32,000 nt of DNA from Candidatus Saccharimonadota bacterium (GCA_965231145.1 OZ246420.1:540001-572000), one strand, 5' to 3'. Shown: positions 8,667 through 11,600, counted from the first letter of the stretch. Made by a program: numbers and translations. The notes: a model not told the origin generated them from the letters alone.

Positions 8667-11600
8667 TTATTCTACTTCTCCACATATTCCTTTTTTCAAT
8701 AGTTCTTTTACTAATACTCTTCCTTGTTCAGCAGATATTATATCTTTTCTATTTATCTCATTAATTTTCTTGATTGCTTTATAGAGAACTTGCATCTTCT
8801 GCCAAAGTTGCTTATTTGTGTAATTATATATTTCTGCTTTTAGACCATTTTTACCTGGTTCTCCTCTACCAATAGGATGCGCTTCACTAATAGCATCACG
8901 AAGAATTTGCTCATCATAATATGAGAGTAAAAGTCCTTGTGCCTTTACTATTTCCATACCCTTATCCCCTCTTTTCACATCAGGCAATTGTGCATTCTCC
9001 TTTACTGCCTGCTTATCAAGTCACTGTAACTGTAATTTCACAATATCCTGGATCTGATAAAGTAATGTCTTTCCATGGGTTGCTATCTTACGAGTTTTTG
9101 TCAGCAGCTCAATAAACTGACCTATACTTCCTCCTGTTTCTCATATAAGCACTCCAACATCTCCATAGACATCTGTATATTCATCGCTTAGAGAATATTT
9201 TTCAAATTTTGTAAATATTTTCATAAAGGATTCTATTTTTGCTTGTGCCTGTTGAGGTGTCATATTTTTATCTACATTTTTGAGAAACCTAGCAATCTTA
9301 TTTCCAAGGAATTGTACTACTAAATCAGCCGGCATCACAGTTCCGCACACATAGTTCTCGAGAAGCGCATTAGCTTCTTTTTGGGTAAACATACCATCTT
9401 TCATTAGTTCTTGTCTTTTGGCAACTAACTGTTTATTGGTAAAGTTAGTTTCTATCGTTCCATTTTCATTTACATACAGACCTGGAGGCAATATGCCGTC
9501 TCTTCCTATTTCTCTCTCAAAATTCATATCGTGCACTTTTTGAATACGCTCCATTTCTGCTGAACTCTTCATTTTTCTTCAAATAATGGTTTCTATTTTT
9601 TCCTGAGAAAAATTATTTACTGAGCGAATTTCTACATGTGCAACAGGGAGTGTACTTTTCATCTCTGTAAATAATGTTTTACTATCTACGTACTTCTTTG
9701 GGAACACAGGGTATCTTTCAAATGAATAATAATATTGCTGACCATCTTTTGTGAAGAACTTATTTGTGGATGAACCATCGAGAGCCACTCCTTCAATATC
9801 TATAAATTGAAATCCCTTTTCTGCGCTATAAATAAAATTACTTCTCTTCGTCAGATCTGTTTGTATTCATCTTTCTGATAGCGTTCTCATAGTCTTTTCA
9901 AATGCTTGAAAGTGTGCTGCTGGGATAGCATCTATTTGTTCTGGTGTTAGTTTATCGCATGACACGCCTTCTGCAATATTCATAACAACAACCTGCTCCC
10001 CACCGGCTAAATTAAATACTTCTTTAGGAACAAATACATGTGGTAAGTCTTTAGTAGCTTCCTGCAAACGAGCTACTTGCTCAATAGGCATAGCTCTTTT
10101 TGCCTTTACTACTTTTACAAATGCATCACTAAATTTATAGAGTCATATGTTTCTACCACCATCTGCCGCGATCTTTATGAATGATTTATAGTGATCTATA
10201 AAATACTTTTTATTAAATAACTGATTCTCTGTTTCTATCGGTGAGCGATGAATAGCACTTTCTACTCAATTATTTTTAAATTTATATCATCCATCTGCTA
10301 GTTTCTCTGCTTTTCATTCTCTTACTAGCTTGTCCCATAAATGCTGAGCTGGTCTTTCTTTTATCTCGGTAAGTCTTCCTTCAGCAATCAATTGCTGTAT
10401 TTGCTCTTCTGTATATGTCAATTTTTTCATATCATTTTCAGTCAATTCTTTGCCATCAAGAAAAACTCTGCTATAGCTATCTAGAAAATGAGTATCTGAA
10501 TATAAATTTCCTACTCACATATCATTACCTGCTTTATTCAGTTCTTTGTAGAGATTTTCTGCTATTCACTGTCTAGTATAATCATTTTTTATTCCGATTC
10601 TCTGGATCTGGAATTTCTCATTATATAATTTAAATACCAACGTTCCTACCTCATTACCATTTTTTATAATACTTGTAATAATAATCTGTCCCTCTTTTGT
10701 TTGCGGCGCATCGTTAAATTGCAGCTTCAATGTAGGCAGATTACTATTGAGATTATCTATAAATAACTGAGGATTTTCCTGCGCTTTTTGTAAAGCTTCT
10801 TTTACTTCTCAAGGAGTATTCTCTTTTTTCATACCATGAGAATCTATGTTTTGTTCTTCTCTCGTATATGATGACGAAATATCATTATTATTGACTCAAC
10901 TAAGATTATTCTTCTTTCAAAGAGATGATACCACCCCCTCATCGATAACATTTCAGCTTTCTTTATCCGTAATGAGATATTTCACCTGCTGTTTTTCTCC
11001 TGAATCCTCTATAGACAATATCTTAATTGTATAATTGCCCTGACTACTCTTTTCAATTCACTTTGCTATAGTTTTACTCTCTATTTTCTTACTCAAAGCA
11101 TTGAGCTGTCCCGTTCCCATATGAGCAATTCTTAAACCGACAACCATGGCAAGGGTTTGCATGAGATCTTCCGGAGCTAATTTCACGTTTTCTCCAAAAG
11201 CAATGTTTACTGCGACATCTGCTCACTGCATACCAACAAATTCTGCTGGCAATGTGATAATGTTTGCAAGCAGCTTATCCTGTAGTGCAGGCGTATTCAA
11301 ATTTTCTAATTTCTTTCACGCTATTTTCTGAGTCATGCTATTGGTAATACCACCGAAATACTTCATAACCCCCATGAAGACTACACTTCTCAGATAGTCT
11401 TCTGACGAAGACTTTTCATTACCCGCTTCGCTATAATGTCCAAATGGATTAAGCTTTTGCAGAAGTTGATCTGACTCTCCTGCTCTTGCTGCATTAAGCG
11501 TCGTATGTGTTGCGTGGAAAGTAGCTCATTCTACGGTAAGATCTGCTATGGTCAATGCACGGCTTGTTTTCCACGATGCTACCAAGCCTTTCGAGGCTAC

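Follow-up and report, generated by a model that had tools for sequence, protein, structure and literature searches.

Although subdomains VIII-XI are missing from the minimal kinases OspG and NleH, both are active and phosphorylate proteins (PMC12756638). NleH1 and NleH2 from enteropathogenic and enterohaemorrhagic Escherichia coli, as well as OspG from Shigella, are type III secretion system (T3SS) effectors of proteobacterial pathogens, with a core of ~170-200 residues that stops soon after the equivalent of the DFG motif. Here we describe a domain with the same kind of reduced core, also without subdomains VIII-XI, that is encoded in a 32,000-nucleotide stretch of DNA from a Candidatus Saccharimonadota bacterium (GCA_965231145.1 OZ246420.1:540001-572000), hereafter the window, by which the whole stretch analysed is meant. 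In contrast to the T3SS effectors, it lies as a module inside a membrane protein of 1631 residues, and the bacterium uses genetic code 25, in which UGA encodes Gly. The domain occupies residues 1113-1304 (9651..10226, minus strand), numbered from the first ATG of the giant open reading frame (ORF), at 13562. We consider it probable that this is a truncated minimal protein-kinase-like (PKL) domain of an unannotated family, with NleH and OspG as its closest characterised relatives, and we infer phosphotransfer and a role as an exchangeable effector module. This assignment draws on family alignments, an AlphaFold2 model of a homolog, Foldseek and hhalign.

The kinase-like domain, its family and its predicted fold

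A homology search with the isolated segment recovered four stand-alone homologs of 209-311 residues (P0002-P0005), which are 45-51% identical to it and keep all motifs. A profile of these four, run against 1.84 billion representative proteins, yielded 204 relatives at E<=1e-3, 26 of which had E<1e-30. Family members are either stand-alone proteins of ~200-320 residues or one module in giants of 1570-3938 residues. A scan of genome contigs found only three relatives, as stand-alone genes, in Uhrbacteria, in SR1 and in a metagenome-assembled genome labelled Gammaproteobacteria. Searching with the whole protein returned only P0001, through its C-terminal module; the word-based selection is insensitive for a 1631-residue query and the kinase homologs were missed. 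No Pfam family was above threshold in the 29 relatives scanned, nine giant carriers included, nor was any NCBIfam family in the ten relatives scanned. Distant relatives of ~300 residues were considered as NleH or Kdo kinases, which was rejected since the 20 scanned against NCBIfam and Pfam gave no matches. No paper describing this family was found in the literature, and a September 2026 preprint on PKL families in oral bacteria makes no mention of candidate phyla radiation (CPR) lineages. The family is new and previously unannotated within the kinase-like superfamily, and is unusual in its catalytic-loop length, its C-terminal element and its carriers.

The structural model was made for homolog P0004, using a 36-sequence family alignment (A3) that also provides the conservation counts given below. 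P0004 and the window domain are 51% identical over 167 residues, and every invariant residue is present in the window domain. The model has a mean predicted local distance difference test score (pLDDT) of 92.7 and a predicted template modelling score (pTM) of 0.86. Its elements follow the order expected of a kinase: DSSP gives two N-terminal helices, beta1, a GG turn, beta2, beta3 with the Lys, alphaC, beta4 and beta5, followed by the hinge, a short alphaD, a long alphaE, the D...N loop, beta7, beta8 with the Asp of an IDI motif, a beta-hairpin and a short helix. The domain ends ~50 residues past the DFG equivalent and has no activation segment, APE motif or alphaF-alphaI. Foldseek found 174 matches in the PDB at E<=1e-3, the top 50 of which belong without exception to protein kinases or PKL enzymes (PknB, AMPK, RSK2, LCK, CK2, GCN2, Rio2, the LanKC enzyme ThurKC and OspG), with OspG having the highest target-normalised template modelling score (TM-score; 0.52-0.55). 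In the viral structure library BFVD, matches were mostly viral Ser/Thr kinases; the top match is a fragment of a torovirus replicase polyprotein and a few others are nidovirus or torovirus replicase polyprotein fragments or unnamed proteins. As judged from the model, the window domain almost certainly has a PKL fold with a bilobal core.

An earlier note, made from this DNA alone, had recognised six kinase-like motifs in canonical order and spacing. All six strings are present in that order on the minus strand at 9789-10172, inside one giant ORF, and in the model of P0004 each falls on the structural element where it should lie. The equivalent of the Gly-rich nucleotide-binding loop is formed by beta1, the GG turn and beta2 (ADGGRNIGLYKF, 10131..10166; minus strand, as are all positions of the domain), which the note had read as IAADGGRNI-[TGA]-LYKF (10131-10166). 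It is a strand-loop-strand by DSSP and aligns with the GxGxxG region of ZAP-70; its own form is GG-x3-G (DGGRNIG), not GxGxxG, and the column of GG-turn residue Gly1137 is Gly in 35/36 sequences. The TGA codon at 10143..10145 encodes Gly1140, a conserved beta2 Gly just after the turn that is Gly in the homologs. Strand beta3, AFVKVV (10107..10124; the string AFVKVVKAK starts at 10124), carries the candidate ATP-anchoring residue Lys1150 (10113-10115) at mid-strand in the model, and this column is invariant in the 11 close homologs. The second Lys that the note had included in its lysine candidate (that of VVK) is Leu in P0002. Helix alphaC, PIEQVARLQEA (10056..10088), is helical in the model and contains the candidate Glu1161 (10080-10082), whose column is acidic in 27/36 sequences (17 Glu, 10 Asp) and conserved in the close subfamily. 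Lys1150 and Glu1161 thus both fall on the expected elements of the P0004 model, beta3 and alphaC.

The beta5 strand and hinge, VVVMNIAEGVS (9960..9992), quoted by the note as the longer hinge-like string GEQVVVMNIAEGVS (9960-10001), align with the hinges of NleH and ZAP-70 and have columns with Met in 25/36, Ala in 31/36 and Gly in 36/36 sequences. Helix alphaE, IPAAHFQAFEKTMRTLSER (IPAAHF...LSER; 9867..9926), shows Pro in 36/36 and His in 34/36, and ends in Gly1232 (34/36), which is encoded by TGA at 9867-9869 and is Gly in the homologs. The catalytic loop and beta7, IQTDLTKRSNFIY (9828..9866; in table form QTDLTKRSNFIY), had been given with the preceding TGA-encoded Gly as [TGA]-IQTDLTKRSNFIY (9828-9869). 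They hold Asp1236 (9855-9857) and Asn1242 (9837-9839), both of which are invariant, as is a Tyr (36/36 each), while Lys occurs at D+3 in 29/36. Strand beta8 with the DFG equivalent, GFQFIDIEG (9789..9815; FQFIDIEG at 9789-9812), contains the putative metal-binding residue Asp1255 (9798-9800), a column that is Asp in 35/36. The family-specific C-terminal element (STNKFFTKDGQQYYYSFERY...LFTEMKST, 9651..9770) is a beta-hairpin with a short helix by DSSP on the model, and its sequence (STNKFF...YYYSFERY...LFTEM) is conserved in the close subfamily only.

The distance of 19 residues between the catalytic Asp and the DFG-like Asp was given correctly, but the catalytic loop, DLTKRSN, is D-x5-N instead of the D-x4-N that had been claimed. 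This one-residue insertion is common to most of the family and some distant relatives show D-x6-N. The series had also been called hard to obtain by chance, and indeed a loose ordered regular expression matched only 3/2000 composition-preserving shuffles of the ORF, a figure that is indicative only since the expression was written post hoc. What decides that the series is more than chance is the conservation of the motif residues across the 204-protein family together with the predicted fold. The kinase-fold reading is therefore supported, but for a truncated minimal kinase, not for a full eukaryotic-like, APH-like or RIO-like one.

Sequence profiles point in the same direction as the model. 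The 36-sequence profile, run against PDB sequences, matched kinases only: NleH1 (E 0.009), NleH2 (0.016), the ZAP-70 N-lobe (0.038) and OspG (0.15). The matches to NleH1, NleH2 and OspG run from hinge to DFG, that to ZAP-70 from the Gly-rich loop to the hinge. The NCBIfam NleH model (NF041316) was the top weak match in three of five members, with a best E-value of 1.5e-4; other weak matches were to Kdo kinase (three of five members, E 0.021), RfaY (0.0061) and LanKC (0.15). Alignment of the family A3 by hhalign with an alignment (A5) of NleH-like kinases from Sodalis, Providencia and Yersinia plasmids gave 95% probability and an E-value of 3.5e-8; the match extends over 69 columns and the catalytic loop of the family has one residue inserted. 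By comparison, an unrelated alignment used as negative control with the same profile gave 0.3%. The catalytic loop aligns with VDTTETN of NleH, being one residue longer, and the region of the IDI Asp with PIDIS of the NleH-like kinases. With the single sequence, phmmer against the PDB detected COQ8B (9tvk_A, E 2.5e-4), aligning RGIQTDLTKRSNFIY to RFMQTDPNWSNFFY. An assignment to UbiB/COQ8 (ABC1) was rejected, since this match was gone with both the five-sequence and the 36-sequence profile and there was no Pfam ABC1 match.

NleH and OspG are accordingly the nearest characterised kinases: they give the best sequence matches, the hhalign match to NleH-like kinases covers beta5/hinge, alphaE, the catalytic loop and IDI, and OspG has the best target-normalised TM-score. 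Local motifs in common are [VI]D..., N.[FL]YD and F.[FP]ID[IL], along with a Gly that precedes the catalytic strand. The differences are nevertheless large: identity is only ~15%, the score with the NleH model is 15 bits where 450 are required, the loop with the catalytic Asp is D-x5-N versus D-x4-N, and the window family has another C-terminal element (the beta-hairpin and helix) as well as an N-terminal two-helix extension. The domain would work like a minimal kinase of the NleH/OspG type, yet it is not a member of the curated NleH family. From this link, minimal effector-type kinases seem to exist outside proteobacterial pathogens as well.

Other kinase families were compared as well. Hanks-type kinases (PF00069/PF07714) share the bilobal core and the motif order, dominate the Foldseek matches and include ZAP-70, whose N-lobe aligns; however, there is no Pfam match, QTD stands for HRD and IDI for DFG, the loop is D-x5-N, and activation segment, APE and alphaF-alphaI are absent. 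RIO/Bud32, KdkA, RfaY/RfaP and LanKC are, like the window domain, compact and without a canonical activation segment, and are represented by weak NCBIfam matches and by Rio2 and ThurKC in Foldseek. Against these small atypical PKL families stand that no curated threshold is reached, that profiles favour NleH/OspG and that the C-terminal parts differ. The G-[IV]-x-x-D-L preceding the catalytic loop is a feature which we take to resemble RIO/Bud32. For APH/choline kinases (PF01636) there is no Pfam match, and the window family has its beta-hairpin and one short helix where those have a helical C-terminal substrate subdomain. UbiB/COQ8 proteins likewise have QTD in place of HRD, but in COQ8 the loop is D-x4-N and large additional helical domains are present. 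No curated model places the domain in the Hanks-type, APH, RIO, Kdo or UbiB families.

A number of points weigh against the reading as a minimal kinase. No Pfam kinase family was found at E<=10 in the whole ORF, the isolated segment or the homologs, and no curated model reached its threshold (NleH for P0004: 14.9 bits, E 0.013, cut-off 450). The hhalign match spans only the C-lobe core, 69 columns long, and D-x5-N departs from D-x4-N, which is the spacing of almost all active kinases. TM-scores are moderate when normalised by query length (0.38-0.47), and the structure is a prediction, of homolog P0004 rather than of the window protein. Distant relatives do not conserve the column of the beta3 Lys (Lys in 21/36 of the wide alignment), and some of them apparently have Arg. 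Finally, no secretion signal or delivery system was identified, and the neighbours and carrier regions are all unannotated. The earlier note had proposed a kinase-clan search and a structure prediction: in the former, the Pfam Pkinase, APH, RIO1 and Kdo models found no match, in the latter the model of P0004 matches kinases. Of the two outcomes that the note had set together against its own reading, a lack of any significant kinase-clan hit and a fold without bilobal kinase architecture, neither was found.

UGA as a glycine codon

The giant ORF (8667..13562, minus strand) has 1631 codons, from the ATG at 13560-13562 to a TAA stop at 8667-8669. From 13583 down to 8670 the minus strand has a single frame without TAA or TAG once TGA is read through, which the standard code breaks. 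Its 28 in-frame TGA codons make up 28/117 of the Gly codons.

The code was tested by aligning seven gene pairs of the window and a syntenic contig, L009, from a related organism (~80% nucleotide identity). TGA in the window stood opposite Gly in L009 12 times and TGA in L009 opposite Gly in the window 21 times, while TGA faced TGA 20 times. With 33 swaps between TGA and GGN and none between TGA and Trp across the syntenic pairs, UGA is Gly in the source organism, which corresponds to genetic code 25. UGA as Trp (code 4) is ruled out by the same counts, TGA having been exchanged with TGG 0 times and with GGN 33 times. Code 25 is known from Gracilibacteria/Absconditabacteria. A scan of the whole window for tRNA genes, aimed at tRNA-Gly(UCA), detected none.

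The earlier note had stressed that two of the motif glycines are encoded by UGA. That UGA is Gly and that both columns are conserved proved right, but the first is the beta2 Gly and not the Gly at the loop tip. At the first TGA of the domain the homologs read RNIGLY, KNIGLY, RNIGIY or RNFGVY, and at the second RGIQTD, RGISTD or KGVQTD, that is Gly in every homolog; over the 36-member alignment the two columns are Gly in 35 and 34 sequences. Since UGA is Gly, both are normal sense codons and not a recoding event, which happen to fall on structurally conserved glycines.

Public gene calls made with the standard code split the giant gene at UGA, by which the kinase domain is hidden in existing annotations. 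P0038 is a 74-residue fragment, 100% identical to part of the domain and ending at TGA codons, and two other public proteins, P0006 and P0157, also represent pieces of giant genes that are orthologous to this one. The practical lesson is that standard pipelines miss domains of such kind when code 25 is not applied.

Proposed catalysis and its acceptor

The window protein contains the full phosphotransfer set (Lys, Glu, Asp, Asn and Asp), which together with the strong constraint on the family argues for an active enzyme. On these sequence grounds the domain is likely to be an active phosphotransferase. In the mechanism that we propose, the GG turn between beta1 and beta2 would cover the ATP phosphates and Lys1150 on beta3, held by Glu1161 of alphaC, would anchor the alpha and beta phosphates. 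Asp1236 would be the catalytic base, Asn1242 and Asp1255 would bind Mg2+, and the gamma-phosphate would be passed to a hydroxyl, most probably on a protein. A partner may be needed for activity, as with OspG. The beta-hairpin and short helix replace the activation segment and subdomains VIII-XI, so that phosphorylation of an activation loop is probably not required.

With moderate confidence, and by analogy with the closest relatives and their architecture, we favour a protein as acceptor. Alternatively, the kinase-like fold could act on a small molecule, lipid or sugar, as in APH, Kdo kinase, RfaY, choline kinase or LanKC, and together with a GNAT-like segment in the same protein form a two-activity modifying module, comparable to the bifunctional AAC(6')-APH(2''). 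This is in line with the weak NCBIfam matches to Kdo kinase (three of five members, E 0.021), RfaY (0.0061) and LanKC (0.15), with ThurKC and Rio2 among the Foldseek matches, with the borderline GNAT-like segment ~90 residues upstream and with the absence from the P0004 model of subdomains VIII-XI, which bind protein substrates. We nonetheless regard it as improbable, since sequence and profile searches link the family best to NleH and OspG, protein kinases that lack VIII-XI too (PMC12756638), the Foldseek top 50 are overwhelmingly protein kinases, and there is neither a helical C-terminal subdomain of the APH/choline kinase type nor a Pfam APH or Kdo match.

A domain with a kinase fold might also be inactive, as a pseudokinase scaffold, or perform other chemistry, such as AMPylation/NMPylation (SelO, NiRAN) or glutamylation (SidJ). 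The unusual D-x5-N loop and the variability of the beta3 Lys column in distant relatives would fit this, as would the torovirus replicase polyprotein fragment that is the top BFVD match, which might be a NiRAN-type domain. However, pseudokinases usually lose phosphotransfer residues, whereas the window protein retains the whole set, the Asp and Asn of the loop are invariant, the DFG-like Asp is present in 35/36, and the order and geometry of the motifs are those of canonical phosphotransferases; we therefore hold this explanation to be very improbable. Finally, the series could resemble kinase motifs by chance, in a giant ORF that is rich in Lys and low in GC and in a segment without kinase fold, to which the non-significant or marginal outcome of each Pfam and profile-versus-PDB search and the loss of the sole COQ8B match (E 2.5e-4) with a profile could be ascribed. 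This explanation is effectively refuted by motif residues conserved across 204 relatives, a confident AlphaFold2 model with 174 Foldseek matches, an hhalign probability of 95% against 0.3% in the control and shuffles that reproduce the series in 3/2000 cases.

Carrier protein, cassette and neighbourhood

The kinase-like domain lies in a variable internal cassette of the giant protein, together with a GNAT-like region and a linker (9634..11057, minus strand; residues 836-1310 by DNA, ~880-1300 by protein). DNA of L009 aligns with window positions 976-9633 and 11058-12340, but not with 9634-11057. The orthologous protein is 78% identical over residues 409-879 and 83% over 1300-1630, and between these flanks (L009 1284-2824) has an unrelated segment of ~460 residues without any kinase-profile match and with a weak GNAT-like match. 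Orthologs on contigs L015, L016 and L017, with a C-terminus that is 51% identical, do not have the kinase domain either. L015 and L016, which span the central region, show a third segment of ~690 residues at the cassette position, and the L016 allele has a weak peptidoglycan-binding-like motif (PG_binding_3, E 0.027). From these comparisons of sequence the kinase domain is cargo of an exchangeable internal cassette in a conserved giant protein. TGA makes up 11/33 of the Gly codons in the cassette, which thus uses it as freely as the flanks and is at home in a code-25 genome.

The GNAT-like (acetyltransferase-like) segment is borderline. It covers residues 959-1021 (10500..10688, minus strand) and matches Pfam Acetyltransf_1 (E 6e-4) at model positions 32-99 of 116 only, its score of 20.5 bits falling short of the 20.7 required. 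The N-terminal 590 residues of the giant protein carry no annotation. They are followed by an Ala/Gly/Val-rich region (residues ~590-835), in which the sole strong hydrophobic segment, a putative transmembrane helix, is found at residues 608-626 (11685..11741, minus strand; Kyte-Doolittle mean of 2.05 over 19 residues).

Because syntenic relatives have unrelated sequence at the cassette position, we suppose that the cassette could be an exchangeable effector or "warhead" module, which would be used in interaction with another cell. The polymorphism suggests a diversifying exchange of effector modules. Polymorphic toxins and effectors offer an analogy for the carrier only, in that a conserved carrier bears a non-homologous cassette in syntenic relatives; in the giant protein, however, the variable part is internal and not C-terminal, and the analogy, which implies no membership, rests on general knowledge. 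Pfam scans of carriers and neighbours found no Rhs, LXG, MafB or PT-domain and no immunity gene. Searches with PHROGs and PADLOC gave no meaningful matches, so that neither a phage nor a defence-system assignment is supported.

In the code-25 predator Vampirococcus, interaction with the host is believed to be mediated by giant membrane proteins (PMC8080830). In an extended form of the effector reading, the source organism would be an episymbiotic or predatory code-25 CPR bacterium and the giant ORF its polymorphic, contact-dependent carrier of effectors, with the GNAT-like segment and the minimal kinase as a warhead that phosphorylates host or prey bacterial proteins. By analogy this can be proposed, but we find it doubtful. 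If true, the type III effector kinases would have a counterpart here that one bacterium directs against another, and a large kinase family in giant proteins, as yet unannotated (~200 clusters at 50% identity), would have its founding example. Giant membrane proteins of code-25 CPR bacteria are almost wholly unannotated, and the kinase domain gives one of them a testable activity. It is no conceptual surprise, but a clean enzymatic domain in the opaque giants of an uncultivated, alternatively coded lineage.

The C-terminal ~320 residues contain two copies of a helical module ending in ...G[IV]CG. The first copy, residues 1329-1410 (9333..9578, minus strand; alignment A6), ends in ...LLENYVCG and the second, residues 1515-1631 (8670..9020, minus strand), in ...LLKKGICGEVE; the latter is modelled by AlphaFold2 as five helices with a pLDDT of 93.8. 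A homology search with the module gave two close relatives only, and a search for a PDB fold match found none (best E 0.35). The module also occurs three times in the 1930-residue protein P0001. Among seven copies a His, Gln, Leu and Cys are invariant, and the conserved His...Cys pair could be metal binding or catalytic.

Elsewhere, one gene of the kinase-domain family adjoins a ribosomal protein operon and another adjoins giant genes on a contig of 26.6% GC. On this contig (L001; JGI 3300056850 contig Ga0558718_02099), stand-alone P0003 (10001-10825) overlaps the start of a gene for >2850 residues, and upstream of it lie genes for 1101 and 1628 residues, the latter with faint helicase-like matches. 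This suggests that, in other lineages or on mobile elements, giant genes and the kinase domain move together.

As a whole, the window represents ordinary bacterial chromosome with housekeeping genes, among them those for ribosomal proteins L1 and L11, RF1, MurA, alanine racemase, pyruvate kinase and exonuclease VII, and most ORFs have in-frame TGA; no T3SS genes were found in it. Two conserved membrane proteins without Pfam family are encoded at 6155-7306 (plus strand; 376 residues, with C-terminal hydrophobic helices) and 7310-8659 (plus strand; 446 residues, polytopic). Both genes run toward the 3' end of the giant gene, a position that is kept in L009 and L015/L016, and a functional link of their products to the giant protein is possible. 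Further away, 4686-6062 (minus strand) encodes a fusion of a PilT/T2SSE-like ATPase and a KH domain (T2SSE E 3e-7, KH_2 E 2e-6) with nine in-frame TGAs. Two other ORFs without Pfam family, at 14070-16310 and 29025-30317 (both plus strand), encode 739 and 425 residues and contain five and seven TGA codons, respectively.

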